Shown here in pieces: positions 19,290-27,400 of a DNA stretch of 64,000 bases. Both the position numbers and the translations under genes were made by a program. A model generated the notes under the pieces. The model saw only the letters and a program-made list of their open reading frames with translations, was not told the origin of the DNA and searched no databases. The DNA comes from a phage: sequence record PX853108.1; one strand, written 5' to 3'. Position 1 is the stretch's first letter, and each line of letters opens with the position of its first letter.

Positions 19290-21944
19290 ATGGGCTTATT
19301 CAGTGGGAAGACCAAAGTATACGTAGCATCCTCTGTCTATAACATGGCAGGGGATATACATAAACGTCCTAACTATATGAAGACTGTAGTCATTGGTAAC
19401 ATTGTTTCCAATACAGGATTCACTATGGCAGATACTATCTCTGATAGTTATCTGAATGGACCAGGTATTCGTATGCGACTGTTCTCCAGCTGGAGTAAGA
19501 ACCACTATGATTCAGAAGTTGGTATGGCAGGTTCTTCATTGGGTGTACTGGCTAAGATTGATCCTACTGTAATAGAGGGTCAAATTACACCTCCTGCTGG
19601 GGAATCTGTTTATGTTCAGGCAGCAGAGATTGGCTTTGCTGACTTTGAGCAATGGTGTGACCAGTATCTTTATGAGAATGCACCCAGTCGAATCATGGAA
19701 CGATTCGACGTAGACATTGATGAAGATACTAATGAAATTACTATGACCTCCCTGGATGGAGGTTCTACTATTAAATTCACGCCTACTAACTTTGAACCAG
19801 GTGCTTTGTATCTCTATGCTGATTACTCTTTCTATAAATCTCCTGTTACTAATCCGCCAGTAGTAGGACCAACTACTGTCTATGATAGTGAGGATGACTT
19901 ACCATCTACTTTGTTATGGACTACCATCTCAAGTGACACAACAGCTAATACAACTAATCTTACCAAGACAATACATACCCATTCTGTTTACTCTGATGGT
20001 AGACCAGATGAAGACAGTACTGTTACTGAACCAAGTGTGGATAACTGGAACTCTTACGTTAAGGTCTACCGTAGAGGATTTACCGAGAAACCTGATGACG
20101 TAACTGTAGTTGTATCTGACAGGGTAATGACTCATAAAAAGTTCGGTGAGATTCAATCAAGTACTACTGTAACTACTAATGTAGTTGATATAGGTGGTGG
20201 TGTTACTCGTACTGACACAATTACTACAACCACAGAGACACTGGTTCGTAAGTATTCATCTCAGACTACTCGTACTGATACTGAGATGACTGCTGTTGGC
20301 ACACCTAAGATGCTTATTTATAAACAGAATTCCGGTAACGTTGTACTGGATTCACTGTTTGAAACCGAGGCTACTGACAACCGATTCTACCCATTCATTC
20401 CAATCAGGAATGATAAACAATGGGTAGAGAATGACCCAATCTACCCACACTGTAAGAAAGCTCTTTATAAAGCTACTGGTGGAAAAATTGATAAGGTAGT
20501 GACAGAACTTAAGAAGAATAAGGATATAGGTGATATTCAGTACATTTACGGTACATTCGGTGTATCTCTTAATACCCCAGAGGATACTGCTAAGGAATAC
20601 ATCTACCGTTTCTTTCAGATGGCTACTGAAGCATTCCCACCTGACCCAACCTACCCGACTTTGGAAGCAGTAATTGCAGGTTATCAGGCAGCTAATGATG
20701 CAGTTGATGCATATGTAGAATGGTGGAACAGGACGGAAGGGCACACTATTGGAACTCCCCCACCACTGCCAGAATACCCTGTCATACCTAAGCGAGAGTT
20801 TAGGGTACACAGTAATAAACACTACAAGTACGATATGACCATTGGTTGGAATTACGTGTCTGAAACTACCCACTCAGGACAAGCATGGTCTGGTGCTAAG
20901 CAGGGTCAACTTCGATCCAGGTATGCAGGAGATATAACTCTTACTCGCAAGAATATACGTACTGCTAGTAACTCAGGTTCAACTAAGAAGCTGGAGGTAA
21001 CTACTACGTTCTATTCAATGCAGGAGTATGAGTTGCTTTGGCAGGATGGTAATGACACTTACCGTAAACTCAGAGTACTGGGCCTAAATCACAATAACAG
21101 AGTATATAAGAATAAGTCAGTACATATTGATGTTGCCGGGGCAATGGGTGATGCAGAGGAGAGTGGATTCATTATTCCATTACACACTAACATCTACCGT
21201 TCCATGTCACTGGTTCGAAGTACTCAGCTATCTACTGCCTGTTCCTACTTAGTGATGAACTCATATAAGAAGGTTAAGAAGAAATGGTATCAGACTGGGG
21301 CATTTAAGATTGTTGTTGTTGTGGTCGCTGTGGTTATCTCTGTATTTACAGCTGGTGCTGGTGGTGCAGGTATACTTGGAGCGTATGGTGCAGTTGGTGC
21401 ATCTCTGGGTTTTGTTGGATTAGCTGCTGTAATAGTCGGTGCTGTAGCAAACGCCATTGCTGGAATGATTCTGGTATCTATTATCACTAAAGTATCCGCC
21501 TCACTGTTCGGTGATAAACTCGGTTTTATTATTGCAGCTATTGCTTCAATGGTAGCTATGAATGTTGGTACTGCATTGTCTACTGGTACATCATTATCTA
21601 CCTTAGCTAGTGAAATGATGAATGCCCAAAACATTATGCAGCTTACCAGTTCAGTAGGTAATGGTATTAGTCAGTATATTAATGCATCTACGGCTGCTAC
21701 TATTCAGAAAGCAGAGAAAGTAATGCAGCAGTACAATACTGATATGATGGCAATCAATAAGCAGTATGAAGAGATGTTTGGTACTGCTGGGCAGGGTGTA
21801 ATTGACCCAATGCAATTCGTGTCAATGGAGTCACTGGATTCATTCTTATCCCGTACTCTCATGACTGGTTCAGATATAGCTGACTTGTCTCTAGACATGA
21901 TTGGCAACTACTCTGACATGACCCTTAATACAGACCTTGTTTAA
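19290..21944 (+). CDS. Large internal virion protein with C-terminal Gly/Ala-rich multi-TM region (putative ejection/channel protein)
   Basis: 884 aa; residues ~670-780 (nt ~21300-21600) form consecutive hydrophobic glycine-zipper-like segments (FKIVVVVVAVVISVFTAGAGGAGILGAYGAVGASLGFVGLAAVIVGAV...). Confidence 0.4.
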   Translation: MGLFSGKTKVYVASSVYNMAGDIHKRPNYMKTVVIGNIVSNTGFTMADTISDSYLNGPGIRMRLFSSWSKNHYDSEVGMAGSSLGVLAKIDPTVIEGQITPPAGESVYVQAAEIGFADFEQWCDQYLYENAPSRIMERFDVDIDEDTNEITMTSLDGGSTIKFTPTNFEPGALYLYADYSFYKSPVTNPPVVGPTTVYDSEDDLPSTLLWTTISSDTTANTTNLTKTIHTHSVYSDGRPDEDSTVTEPSVDNWNSYVKVYRRGFTEKPDDVTVVVSDRVMTHKKFGEIQSSTTVTTNVVDIGGGVTRTDTITTTTETLVRKYSSQTTRTDTEMTAVGTPKMLIYKQNSGNVVLDSLFETEATDNRFYPFIPIRNDKQWVENDPIYPHCKKALYKATGGKIDKVVTELKKNKDIGDIQYIYGTFGVSLNTPEDTAKEYIYRFFQMATEAFPPDPTYPTLEAVIAGYQAANDAVDAYVEWWNRTEGHTIGTPPPLPEYPVIPKREFRVHSNKHYKYDMTIGWNYVSETTHSGQAWSGAKQGQLRSRYAGDITLTRKNIRTASNSGSTKKLEVTTTFYSMQEYELLWQDGNDTYRKLRVLGLNHNNRVYKNKSVHIDVAGAMGDAEESGFIIPLHTNIYRSMSLVRSTQLSTACSYLVMNSYKKVKKKWYQTGAFKIVVVVVAVVISVFTAGAGGAGILGAYGAVGASLGFVGLAAVIVGAVANAIAGMILVSIITKVSASLFGDKLGFIIAAIASMVAMNVGTALSTGTSLSTLASEMMNAQNIMQLTSSVGNGISQYINASTAATIQKAEKVMQQYNTDMMAINKQYEEMFGTAGQGVIDPMQFVSMESLDSFLSRTLMTGSDIADLSLDMIGNYSDMTLNTDLV

Positions 21945-22413: not shown

Positions 22414-24369
22414 ATGGCTCAAATTACATGGCGTAATGTTGATGCACCTAACTTCTCTGGAGTTGGTGACAGCATTCGTACATTTGGCAACATGATTGGT
22501 AACGCTACCTCCGGCTTAAGTGATGCACTGGGTAATTTCCAGAACGCTGCCAAGCAGGAGGCTGGCAATGCCGTCATGATGAATGCTATGCGATACCAAG
22601 ACCCTACTGAGTATCGTAATGCTTTGGCATCTGGTGCATTGTTTCAGGGGGTTGACCCTTCATTGGTAAGCCAGCGTACTCTTCAGAATCTGGATGAGCG
22701 AGCAGGTACTCTTCTGACTCAGCAAGGTCAGCAGGGAACCAATGACTACAATGCTTATAATTTTGGTCGCTTAAAGGATGTTAACTCTGCATTAGATAAT
22801 GCATCTCCAGCTATTCGTTTACTGTCTGAGGCTTATCAGTCTGGTGACCAGAACCGTATTAATGCTGCATTGGGTCAGACTCGTGATGCATTATCTGCAC
22901 TTCCTGCTGACCAACAACTGGATTTGTTGAGTCGTCTGCAAGGTCAAGGCGGTCAGGCTATTAACCAAGCACAGAACCGTTTTGATTTGGGAGTGGCTCA
23001 ACGTAATGATGCTGATAGTCAGGCAGCTATGGGTGTAATGTCACAGATTACTCGTGGTGCTGAGAATGCTGACGATGCCCGTATTCTGGCAGAGTCTTAT
23101 AGTAAGCATCTGTCTCCGGTTGCCCAGGCACGTTTACAGGAAATGCTTGCACGAGCATATCCGGGTGTTTACGGTAACAATGTTGGCGCTACATCTGCTC
23201 CTGGTACTGCTGGTACTCGTCAAGGTTCTCCTTACGATGTTACTTACCAATTTGCTGGTACATCTACTCCTATTACTCAGATGAGTATTGGTGATGTAAT
23301 TAAGCACCAGGATAGTATGAAGACGAACCAGGGTGCTTCACCTGTTGGTGCATTCCAGATTAACCAAGCTACTCTACTAGACTTCGCTCCCAAAGTTCTC
23401 GGTTCAGATTGGCAAAGCCAGCCTCTTTCTCCAGAGAACCAGGATAAGATTGGTAAGGCTATCTTCGAGGCTCGTAAGAATGGTAACCTTAAAGATACCT
23501 GGGCTGCTTTACCTAACTCTACCCCAGGTGCTTATAAGGATATGACTTGGGAACAGATTAAGCCTGTTATTGCTCAAGCTGAGGTAGGGGCTGACCCACT
23601 GGCTATGATTCAGAATAATCAAGGTAATCAGGCAGTATCTACTCTGGCTACCGGTATGATTGGTACTCGTTCTATGGAGGACAATGCTGGAAGTATTGCT
23701 CCTGATTATTTACCTGCCTTAAATGACACCTCTACTGTTGGGGAGGTTGCTAATAGATTACTGGAGGGTGATTTTAAGGGGGCAGATAAAAAATGGGTTG
23801 TGGCTCGTATTAGTGATATCGCTCAACGTGCTAATGTATCCCCTGCTATGGCAGGTGTTGTTGTTCAACGTGCAATGACTAATGCACCAGAAAGTTATAC
23901 AGGGCGTCTTATTGATTATCTAACCATAGGACAAACCCCAGAAGCCGGTAATGGCTTGCGTCTTAATGATGCTGCTGTAGACCAAATGGTTGAGGGGTTA
24001 AAACGTGGTGAACCCCTTGAAGCAAGTGTTCGTAACCTTGGTCGTGCTCAGGCTATGCAGAACATTCAGGCAGCACAGACTGCATATGATGCTGCTGTAG
24101 CTGCACTGACAAATACCCAGAATAAGATTGCTACTGGGCAGACAGCACTCACTGCGTTACTTCCGTCACGACAGGAACAAGTGCGTAGAGCTGCTGAAAT
24201 GCTTAAAAATGCACAAGGCCAAGTCCAGGCTGACCCACAAAACCTGGCTCCACGTAACTTTCGGTCACAGGCTTCCGTAGATCGAGAGGCTGAGAAAGAA
24301 AACCAGGAGCGTGCTATACGGTATATACGCCAAGCCCAGGGCATACCTGGGTATGTGAAAATGCCTTAA
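22414..24369 (+). CDS. Internal virion protein with lytic-transglycosylase-like (SLT-type) motif
   Basis: 651 aa; RBS AGGAAA; contains DSMKTNQGASPVGAFQINQAT, resembling the SLT signature ES-x7-SPVGA-(GLMQ) but with Asp in place of the catalytic Glu. Confidence 0.4.
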   Translation: MAQITWRNVDAPNFSGVGDSIRTFGNMIGNATSGLSDALGNFQNAAKQEAGNAVMMNAMRYQDPTEYRNALASGALFQGVDPSLVSQRTLQNLDERAGTLLTQQGQQGTNDYNAYNFGRLKDVNSALDNASPAIRLLSEAYQSGDQNRINAALGQTRDALSALPADQQLDLLSRLQGQGGQAINQAQNRFDLGVAQRNDADSQAAMGVMSQITRGAENADDARILAESYSKHLSPVAQARLQEMLARAYPGVYGNNVGATSAPGTAGTRQGSPYDVTYQFAGTSTPITQMSIGDVIKHQDSMKTNQGASPVGAFQINQATLLDFAPKVLGSDWQSQPLSPENQDKIGKAIFEARKNGNLKDTWAALPNSTPGAYKDMTWEQIKPVIAQAEVGADPLAMIQNNQGNQAVSTLATGMIGTRSMEDNAGSIAPDYLPALNDTSTVGEVANRLLEGDFKGADKKWVVARISDIAQRANVSPAMAGVVVQRAMTNAPESYTGRLIDYLTIGQTPEAGNGLRLNDAAVDQMVEGLKRGEPLEASVRNLGRAQAMQNIQAAQTAYDAAVAALTNTQNKIATGQTALTALLPSRQEQVRRAAEMLKNAQGQVQADPQNLAPRNFRSQASVDREAEKENQERAIRYIRQAQGIPGYVKMP

Positions 24370-24410: not shown

Positions 24411-24472
24411 TAACTGGCTTACTGTAGAGTAAGTTACCTATATACGATATAAGTTTGAATAGGAAACATGCT

Positions 24473-27400
24473 ATGTCAACATTTGACCGTCTGGCAGGTT
24501 TCGCAGACAGCATCACTAATGCTAAGCAAGTCGATGTCTCTACTGCAACCTCCCGGAAGCAAGCTGCACAGGGGCAAAGCCCTTTCCAATTAACCCCAGA
24601 TAATGCTTACAATCTACAGACTGGACGAGTAGGTAATCTTGGAATCGGTGCATACGAACCAGGTTCACTTCAGGCAGATTTCACTCAAGCCTCCCCCTTA
24701 GAAATCATTAATAAATATGGTAATGAGCAAGGTCTACAGATTCTTAATAGTCGAGCTAATGCTGCTGATGCTGTACGTCAGGACTTATCTAAACAACGTA
24801 CTAACGCAGAAGCATTTGGCGATATCCTTTCTGGTGTTGGTCTTGGTGTTGCTAATACCCTTGGGGGCATTGCTGCTCTTGGCACAGGCTTGGTCAATGA
24901 TAATGCCGGGGCATCCATTGCTTCCGGTCTTGACTGGTTGAATAAAGGTGTACACAACCTACAGTCCGATGCACTGAATGCTCGCCGTAATGTAGTACAG
25001 AACCAGAACGTAATATCTGCACAGGAAAATGAGAAACTCTATAAGCAAGATATTGCTAAAGGAGAAAGCGAACTCGTTGCTTCCCTGTCTCGCATTGGTC
25101 GTGATGCTTACGATTCTGTTGCTAATACCCTGTCTAACGGCATGGCTGCTACTGATGGTATTGCTGAAGGTGTAGGTTCTCTGTTTACTGGTGGCCCATT
25201 AATCCGTGGTGTATCTGCACTCGGTAAGGTAATGGTAGGTGGAGATAAAGCTGTTAAGGGTATTACCTTAGCTGCTGAGTTAGGTTCACGTCCTGCACGG
25301 ATTGCACAGTCTGCTGGTCGTGTTGCTGCACCTGCTATAGCAATTGGTGGTATGGAAGCTGGTGGTGCATACCAACAGACTGCTAATGAAATTATGGAAA
25401 TGCCATTCAGTGAACTGGCTGCTAAATCTCCAGTATACCAACAGCATATTAAAGATGGTTTATCTCCTGAAGAAGCACGTCGTCAGACTGCATCTGAAAC
25501 AGGTATTACTGCTGCTGGCTTAACTGCTCCAGTTGCTGCTCTTACTGGTCCACTGGTATCCAAGTTTGAACTTAACCCACTCAAGGTAGGTTCACTGGCT
25601 GGTGCTGGTTCTAACATGCTGCGTGAGACTGTAGAAGAAGGTATCCAGTCTGGTACAAGTCAGTTCGCACAAAACACTGCAATCAAGGAAAATGTTGATG
25701 CATCTCGTGACATCCTCAAAGGTGTAGGCGAACAAACTGGTCTTGGTGCATTGTATGGCTTTGGTTCTGCTGGGGTTGCTCAAGCTCCTGGTGCAACTGT
25801 TAAGGCTGCTGGTGCTGCCGTTGGTCCTGCTGTACGTACTACCCTGGCTGGTGCTTCTTTGGCTGGTAAGGCACTAGCAAAAGTAGCCTCCCCTATTACT
25901 AACATCCTGGTTCAGCGTGGTGAAGAAGTAGCTAAACGTAACGAACAGGCATCTCCTGTATCTGATGCTACGGTTAATGCTGCTGCACAGGAAGCTACTG
26001 CTCAGGCAGAACAGGCCCAGGCAACCGTACAGGAAGCAGTAGATGCAATGGATATTTCTCCAGAAGAGAAAGCTGCTGCTACCCAGTATGCTGCTGACTT
26101 AACTCAGGTAATGAAGTTTGATCCAGTAGAACTGGAACAAGCTAGCCCTACAGTCCGTGAAGCTGTTTCTGGTTCCACTAACCGTGTTGAAGCTATTCAG
26201 AAGATGGCTGACCTGGTTAATACTGCCGAAGACCCTAACGTTCAAATGGAAGCTGCAATCCAGATGTACGACAACATCATGTCTATGGATAGCTTCATTA
26301 ACCGTGACCCAGGTGCTCTGGCTAATCTGGAACAAGGCTCTCCTGCTGCTAATATCGTTGACCAATTCTCTGGCCTGATGGCTAACGTTCAGAATACACC
26401 GAAAGTACTTCGTGCATTCCGTGCTATTCATTCCATGATTCAGGAACAGGCAGAAGCAGGTAAACTGAAAGCTACTGAAGAAGCTAACCAAGCCCAGGCA
26501 AACAATATTGCCATGGCTGCTGATATGTCTCCAGAAGTACTGGATGCAGATTCAGTAAACATGGTTCTGAAACATGCAAGTGAAGGTAAGATTACACTGG
26601 GGAATCGTCAGCGTGCTGCCCTGCAATCTGCTGCTGCCTTGTTACAGGGTGCACGAGAATTTGACGCTAAAGCAGAAGAACTAGGCTTACGTCCTCAAGA
26701 CATTGTTAGTAAACAGATTAAAACCGACGAGTCTCGTTCTAATGAAGGCCAGTACTCTGCGTTGCAACATGCTAAACGCATTCGTTCTGCGTACAACTCT
26801 GGTAACTTCGATTTGGCTTCCGCTTATCTCGACGACTTTATGAAGTTCGCCCAGCACATGCAGAATAAGGTCGGAGCGTTGAATGAGCATCTGATTTCTG
26901 GGAATGCGGATAAGAATAAGTCTGTCCATTATCAGGCTCTTACTCCCTCCCGTGAATGGGTACGTAGTCGTACTGGCCTCGGTGTCAATCCGTATGATAC
27001 CAAGTCTGTTAAGTTTGCCCAGCAAGTAGGACTGGAAGCCAAGACCGTAGCTGATATTGCTAACGCACTTGCTACGGCTTACCCGGAGCTTAATGTTTCT
27101 CATGTTAAGGTTACCCCATTGGATTCCCGTTTGGACAAGCCTGCTGCCCAAGTAGTTAAAGAGTTCCGTCAGGGCAATCTTGATGCTGCTCAATCCCAAC
27201 AGACCAATGAACCAGTGAATCAGGTTGATGAATCTCCTGTTACAAAACAGGAACCAGTTACCCCTACTGTACAGACTAAACCCTCTGTTAGTGAAGCTGT
27301 TAAAACAGAACCTACTATTAAAGAGTCTAAACCACAGACTGCAAAAGAACCTGAGAACCAGTCTGAAAAACAGGATGCTGTTGAACAGCCTACTGAATCT

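Follow-up and report, generated by a model that had tools for sequence, protein, structure and literature searches.

A putative lambda-lysozyme-type domain in circularly permuted order in the gp51-type ejection protein of an N4-like coliphage

Does the tunnel-forming ejection protein of N4-type phages also carry a domain that cuts peptidoglycan? The question is raised by a 651-amino-acid open reading frame (ORF) in a 64,000-nucleotide stretch of phage DNA (PX853108.1; hereafter the window), in which an initial annotation made from the sequence alone had marked the peptide DSMKTNQGASPVGAFQINQAT as an SLT-like motif with Asp in place of the catalytic Glu, and had proposed either an attenuated peptidoglycan-cleaving domain used during ejection or a binding-only module. 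The peptide was located in the ORF product (Table 1). By the best DNA match of the ORF, the window belongs to a G7C-like (Gamaleyavirus) N4-type coliphage, identity being 95% to Escherichia phage PD205 and ~85% to G7C and PhAPEC7. The product matches PDB 11mn (N4 deltaC-gp51) at E 2.6e-132 over residues 1-357 (phmmer against PDB sequences) and PHROG 6126 'virion structural protein' at E 1.8e-297 over residues 1-649, and the cassette order gp53-gp52-gp51-vRNAP (virion RNA polymerase) in the window is that of N4, RiverRider, Pokken, inbricus, Axy24, and JWAlpha. By homology, the 651-residue protein is an N4 gp51-type periplasmic-tunnel ejection protein. In N4, gp51 is ejected, and assembly into a decameric periplasmic tunnel and membrane channel activity have been shown for N4 gp51 only (PMC13434306).

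Profile comparison and a predicted model indicate that residues ~273-393 of this protein form a domain homologous to lambda lysozyme, with a lambda-lysozyme-like (GH104-like) fold. Compared by hhalign with lambda R alone, the domain alignment gave P 1.1e-3 when built from 13 sequences and P 1.7e-4 when built from 45; against an alignment of nine lambda R family sequences drawn from phage records, the gp51-type profile reached 96.4% probability (E 1.1e-9, 66 columns). The alignment pairs GAFQI, SPENQD, and WAALP of the domain with GRYQL, SPKSQD, and WASLP of lambda R, and the motifs held in common with the lambda R family are GxGxYQ, SPxxQD, and WASLP, the last extending as W-A-S/A-L-P...G-x-Y. 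Identity to lambda R (a GH104 lytic transglycosylase, PDB 1AM7) is about 20%, below Pfam/HMMER detection, and the gp51 domain differs from it in having an extra helix (residues 292-301) between the YDV and GxxQ motifs. Relatives of the domain match PHROG 90 'endolysin' at 1e-5 to 1e-7.

The lysozyme-type alpha+beta fold of the lambda lysozyme family was found in the AlphaFold2 (AF2) model of residues 258-400, built with the 45-sequence alignment, which had a predicted local distance difference test score (pLDDT) of 85.3, a predicted template modeling score (pTM) of 0.79, and values of 90-98 in the core; a single-sequence prediction of the full protein was uninformative, with pLDDT below 50 in the domain region. 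Other members of the lysozyme superfamily ranked lower than lambda lysozyme (RpfC 3.5, DslA 3.4, phiKZ gp144 2.8, EtgA 2.7). Beyond gp51 homologs, Foldseek matches in BFVD comprised phage baseplate hub/gp5-like proteins, a SAR endolysin transglycosylase, a 'Peptidase M15B' multidomain protein, and a putative muramidase.

The region is widespread. In a tblastn search, residues 256-429 were found in 135 phage records, all Schitoviridae, whose hosts include Escherichia, Klebsiella, Shigella, Xanthomonas, Stenotrophomonas, Achromobacter, Erwinia, Burkholderia, and some Pseudomonas. When 1.84 billion cluster representatives were searched exhaustively with HMMER, 1828 proteins matched at E <= 1e-3, 674 of them at E <= 1e-10. 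The matches listed are mostly gp51-like proteins of 550-800 residues with the domain at about residues 270-420; the others are standalone proteins of 240-320 residues, proteins with the domain at the C-terminus, and one polyvalent protein of 3094 residues. Conservation was counted in 151 representatives clustered at <=50% identity, roughly 1,700 weaker members lying outside the listed matches, and the most conserved positions are given in Table 1. E390 is the single invariant Glu, and indeed the single invariant acid, of the family. The column of D275 (D112/N32) does not hold an obligatory acid, while an acid at position 344 (D/E, 147/151) lies in a conserved Q-D motif also present in lambda R and is a possible second acid or helix cap. 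The family is without annotation in Pfam or NCBIfam: PF06737 (Rpf-like transglycosylase-like) appeared only below its gathering score of 27 bits, and NCBIfam offered no domain annotation. One GenBank record (phage SP5M, MT682708) names a homolog 'lysozyme containing protein', which implies that an annotation pipeline had already flagged it. A tblastn search of the phage collection found no such domain in the N4-like phages of Pseudomonas aeruginosa (DEV, LIT1, and LUZ7 types), and one paper describes a separate 831-residue virion protein with a lytic transglycosylase domain in the N4-like phage ZC03; Schitoviridae lineages may place muralytic function on different virion proteins.

Where the gp51 domain departs most clearly from lambda R is in the position of its helix-borne Glu. 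In lambda R, Glu19 closes an N-terminal helix, whereas in the gp51 domain the corresponding candidate, E390, stands at the C-terminal end and the collinear site holds no Glu; where lambda has SEGT...GYDV the window reads APGTAGTRQGSPYDV, with Pro263 for Glu. Across the family, the 25 residues upstream of the YD motif are 80% G/A/S/P/T/N/Q, and 12 proteins begin no more than 11 residues before that motif. The C-terminal helix of the window protein, TWEQIKPVIAQAEVG, spans residues 379-391 (H122-134 in the AF2 model, pLDDT about 95) and, written as TWEQIKPVIAQAE-VG, ends in E390. In 150 of the 151 members such a helix occurs once and once only, in every case following the core, and its Glu is followed by S/V/T-G (ESG in 43, EVG in 40, ETG in 12). 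The hydrophobic positions at -4, -5, and -8 from E390 match those of the catalytic helices of lambda R, T4 lysozyme, and Slt70.

A near-identical helix, TWEQIKRGIFAGE-SGG, occurs at the N-terminus of distant relatives. The search with the 45-sequence alignment recovered uncharacterised phage or prophage proteins of canonical order (P0160, P0163, P0156, P0157, and P0162), which share with the gp51 domain the core (98-99.7% by hhalign) and the helix pattern W-E-x-I-[KR]-x-x-I-x-x-G-E-S-G-G, but differ in that the helix and its Glu are N-terminal, directly before a Y-[DNG] motif. P0160 and P0163 start 'TWEQIKRGIFAGESGGDY' (in fuller form MPTWEQIKRGIFAGESGGDYGALFG... in P0160, with P0163 similar), and P0156, P0157, and P0162 have 'FDSIIRAEGT' before a YD/YN motif, within the longer stretch ...FDSIIRAEGTAKYGDPYNTSL...; the domains of these relatives end in GAWEG(F/Y)K, without the C-terminal helix. 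Between the gp51-type core and the canonical group, hhalign gave 99.7% (E 4.6e-26). A hidden Markov model (HMM) of the gp51 C-terminal helix matched residues 3-19 of P0160 (12.7 bits) and residues 14-29 of P0163 (10.4 bits), scores above those of all 1800 shuffled controls (maximum 8.3). When the helix columns were moved to the front of the profile, the hhalign score against P0160/P0163 rose from 84.6 (E 2.4e-14, 101 columns) to 103.7 (E 6.5e-18, 114 columns), with E390 aligned on the Glu of P0160/P0163. The Glu of the P0156 group in turn aligns on lambda Glu19 by hhalign. Because the permuted-profile alignment can be chained with that of the lambda R family, E390 would correspond to the canonical Glu and hence to lambda Glu19. 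On these comparisons the domain looks like a circular permutation that kept the catalytic Glu, arising by duplication and truncation, which is the simplest reading; we infer that E390 is the general acid and is placed in the cleft. The linker includes APGTAGTRQGS, a possible vestige of an ancestral 'AEGT' catalytic motif with Pro263 for Glu (compare 'MRAEGTAGKDPYNVV' in P0005 and 'SEGTDNGRQKTRNHGYDV' in lambda).

The initial annotation had located the catalytic position elsewhere, at Asp300 (codon GAT, 23311-23313), in an SLT (GH23)-type domain whose ES-motif Glu had been replaced and whose activity might be attenuated. D300 is not a conserved acid and is not the catalytic residue, because its column is mostly Arg/Lys (116/151; R71/K45/Q14/D5) and varies even among 13 isolated phages (D,D,A,S,T,T,A,K,K,N,S,E,D); it also follows that a D-to-E variant would be uninformative. 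The motif of E. coli Slt70 is ES-x7-SPVGASGLMQI, and the claim of identical spacing rests on SPVGA, a pentapeptide confined to the N4/G7C subgroup; in the family at large the consensus of that stretch is GSSAxGAYQI. If the invariant Q315 is paired with the Gln of GLMQ, D300 lies three residues away from the SLT Glu position. The G-x-x-Q element itself (G312-A-F-Q315; G in 151/151, Q in 150/151) is the counterpart of GRYQ in lambda lysozyme and of GLMQ in SLT; such a G-A-[YF]-Q motif is present but is common to the lysozyme superfamily and does not discriminate between families. Pfam hmmscan of the full protein and 13 domain sequences gave no match to SLT PF01464 at E up to 10, and the top fold and profile matches are to the lambda lysozyme family (GH104). 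An Asp-for-Glu SLT enzyme is thus contradicted by conservation, profile, and fold data alike, and we regard that model as wrong to near certainty; structure prediction and profile search upheld a lysozyme-like fold and a relationship to lambda R, and failed to recover an SLT profile. No more credible than the SLT model, and equally at odds with those three kinds of data, is a chance motif in a stretch of the tunnel protein that serves as a linker, flexible or disordered and lacking a defined fold. The low single-sequence pLDDT would suit it, as would cryo-electron microscopy of an N4 gp51 construct of residues 1-359, in which only residues 52-255 were resolved and everything beyond 255 was disordered (PMC13434306). 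That construct, however, ends at the equivalent of window residue 357, partway through the lysozyme-like domain and just past helix 340-354, and lacks both W363 and the helix with the invariant Glu; disorder past residue 255 is then to be expected, and the truncation is a plausible explanation for it. The alignment-based model (pLDDT 85; 90-98 across the core), the occurrence of the domain in 1828 cluster representatives, and the match to the lambda R family (E 1e-9) all speak for a folded domain.

A stronger contender, although one we still think rather unlikely, retains the fold and gives up the chemistry: the module would no longer cleave but bind peptidoglycan to anchor or position the tunnel, or serve a structural or oligomerisation role, with E390 kept for structure or ligand binding. 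Catalytically dead lysozyme-like domains are known, and several points weigh against a permuted, active enzyme of lambda type. At the position collinear with Glu19 the family has a gap or P/A/G (Pro263 in the window) within a Gly/Ala-rich linker, with no N-terminal helix. Lambda lysozyme has a C-terminal helix of its own, ending xAGG, to which the gp51 helix could correspond, the catalytic helix having been lost. With the P0156 group, permutation brought no rise in score (98.3 vs 96.5), though the aligned stretch then takes in the Glu. No lysozyme family was matched by Pfam hmmscan, whether with the full-length sequence or with 13 domain sequences; the domain HMM searched against PDB sequences returned N4 gp51 itself and one spurious GH66 match, again without a lysozyme family; and Foldseek against the PDB gave nothing significant (top match leech destabilase, E 1.7). 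In the literature searched, no report of a lysozyme-like domain in N4 gp51 or of its muralytic activity was found, and no muralytic assay; the authors of the N4 ejectosome study (2026) state that the ejection proteins appear to be without peptidoglycan hydrolase activity or signature (PMC13434306). Set against these points is the helix itself. The superfamily has as its catalytic signature a Glu at the C-terminal end of a helix with S/V/T-G after it, and in the gp51-type family that Glu is kept in 150/151 members. The gp51 helix resembles the N-terminal catalytic helix of the canonical relatives and not the lambda C-terminal helix: its HMM gave no significant match to the lambda R family, and none on the lambda C-terminal helix, where the residue at the corresponding position is variable (E/D/K/K/T/E/K/R). 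With an invariant E390 on a relocated helix of catalytic type, the initial suggestion of an attenuated domain is not supported.

We accordingly hold it moderately probable that the gp51 periplasmic-tunnel protein bears a permuted lambda-lysozyme-type domain which, with E390 as its catalytic residue, cuts peptidoglycan during ejection. The more general idea of the initial annotation, a peptidoglycan-directed domain used in ejection, is supported. The comparisons show homology, predicted fold, conservation, and the shift of the helix along the sequence; the place of E390 in the cleft, catalysis and its chemistry, and the part played in ejection are inferred. Ejected gp51 would build the trans-periplasmic tunnel by its leg-fold region (residues 52-255, by homology), and the linker of residues 256-272 would tether one lysozyme-type domain per subunit, the polypeptide entering the domain straight at the (P)YDV motif. 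The 10-12 copies of gp51 would each present one domain at the peptidoglycan layer, where the domains may cleave glycan strands locally as the tunnel crosses the murein, probably as lytic transglycosylases like lambda R, and so let the tunnel, vRNAP, and DNA pass. Lytic transglycosylases, unlike muramidases, leave 1,6-anhydro-MurNAc when they cut the MurNAc-GlcNAc bond.

This murein-cutting role is proposed by analogy with the lytic transglycosylase domain of T7 gp16 and with phage hub lysozymes. T7 gp16, an internal core/ejection protein, reportedly carries its lytic transglycosylase domain at the N-terminus, and would thus offer the same arrangement of a muralytic domain on an ejected internal podophage protein that builds a trans-envelope channel; it differs in having a canonical GH23 SLT domain with the ES motif, on an inner-membrane/cytoplasmic component, whereas in N4-type phages a GH104-like permuted domain would sit on the gp15-like periplasmic-tunnel protein. 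A T7 mutant in the gp16 transglycosylase domain is reported to be defective on stationary-phase or low-temperature cells. The baseplate hub of cyanophage A-1(L) (PDB 8KEA) likewise holds a lambda-lysozyme-like domain inside a virion protein and not in a soluble endolysin. Helix A of T4 lysozyme, although N-terminal, packs with the C-terminal lobe, and moving it to the C-terminus yields a folded, active protein. Such engineered permutants indicate that this rearrangement is structurally tolerated in the fold class, although they are laboratory constructs of a GH24 enzyme, whereas permutation of the gp51 domain would have arisen in nature, in a large family of phage proteins.

Relatives of the domain occur in a virion gene of a PRD1-like tectivirus, in a gene directly after a tape-measure gene, and in the 3094-residue polyvalent protein, and the proteins that carry them are expected to enter with the DNA. 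The first of these, P0003, is a standalone family member of 261 residues with a hydrophobic C-terminus (contig L014 8001-8786; same arrangement in L015), encoded between a 442-residue spike-like gene and an M15 peptidase gene on a contig that also has P3 capsid and PRD1_DD genes. It resembles the virion-associated transglycosylase P7 of PRD1 in role and size and may be an analog of this entry enzyme, the equivalence being positional; tblastn found no match to P0003 in PRD1 itself.

Taken more broadly, the chances seem to us evenly balanced that the phage entry proteins of an extensive, unannotated family, numbering at least 1828 clusters at 50% identity, share a naturally permuted lambda-lysozyme-type domain, and that in N4-like phages this domain is the source of the peptidoglycan cleavage missing from the ejectosome, with 10-12 active sites arrayed in a ring on gp51. 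A hidden domain of lysozyme type in gp51, bearing an invariant Glu (E390 here; E392 in N4), would be a concrete, testable answer, and may explain how N4-type phages cut through the bacterial cell wall. If true, the lysozyme fold would have undergone circular permutation in nature. The family could also serve as an annotation template for hundreds of 'virion structural protein' or 'hypothetical protein' entries, reaching Schitoviridae, tectivirus-like elements, tape-measure-adjacent genes, and polyvalent proteins.

Table 1. Features of the gp51-type gene and its neighbors in the window, and conserved residues of the putative lysozyme-like domain (counts in 151 representatives).
Feature	Coordinates	Strand	Basis or remark
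gp53 homolog, tail plug, 884 aa	19290..21944	+	Context; ORF list, role from PMC13434306
gp52 homolog, outer-membrane ejection protein, 154 aa	21937..22401	+	Context; role from PMC13434306
N4 gp51 homolog ('66 kDa protein'), periplasmic-tunnel ejection protein, 651 aa	22414..24369	+	ORF list, phmmer, PHROG
'Leg-fold' tunnel region, aa 52-255	22567..23178	+	Alignment to 11mn; N4 residues 52-255 resolved
Gly/Ala/Ser/Thr-rich linker, aa 256-272	23179..23229	+	Low pLDDT at model N-terminus
Lambda-lysozyme-like domain, apparently circularly permuted order, aa ~273-393 (~120 aa)	23230..23592	+	
Initially annotated motif, aa 300-320	23311..23373	+	Non-conserved D300; invariant G307, G312, Q315, T320
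C-terminal helix W379-EQIKPVIAQA-E390-V, proposed relocated catalytic helix	23548..23586	+	Glu390 codon GAG 23581-23583
Virion RNA polymerase, gp50 homolog, ORF 3590 aa	24455..35227	+	Synteny with N4 and other Schitoviridae
G307			149/151
G312			151/151
Q315			150/151
T320			150/151
W333			144/151
Q343			151/151
W363			150/151
W379			138/151
E390			150/151; 90 residues downstream of D300

Further observations concern the same genes and their relatives. Outside Schitoviridae, the sole match among isolated phages was a weak tblastn match to P0003 (E 3e-3) in Xanthomonas phage X1, a 200-kb jumbo phage (OQ427096.1 87050-87328). P0005 (contig L013 2950-6160) lacks a helix in front of the catalytic Glu, at which it begins, only 17 nucleotides after an 813-residue ORF, and may represent a split or frameshifted gene or take its helix from the upstream product. 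P0162, of canonical order and 301 residues long, is encoded within a phage tail cluster, immediately behind a TMP_2 tape-measure gene (contig L019 6122-8906), a setting that suggests a tape-measure-associated muralytic domain. In the polyvalent protein (P0129) the domain occupies residues 372-507, accompanied by LPD23 and a DUF6782 metallopeptidase, in keeping with the account by Iyer et al. (2017; PMC5512222) of injected polyvalent proteins that carry 'lysozyme' fusions.

Toward the C-terminus of the window gp51 homolog, long helices are predicted at residues 535-605, and residues 536-626 (24019-24291) match part of the RipA coiled coil in NCBIfam far below threshold (E 1.5e-4, 21 bits vs a cutoff of 625), the only NCBIfam match to the protein; the match is probably compositional and marks a coiled-coil-like region. 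Upstream, the gp52 homolog ORF has its listed TTG start at 21937 and overlaps the last 8 nucleotides of the gp53 homolog (21937-21944); its product as listed begins MFNRRIPMDLSF, and an internal Met may be the real start. The vRNAP ORF is also listed from a TTG (24455-24475), an ATG seven codons downstream (MSTFDRLAG...) being the more likely start.

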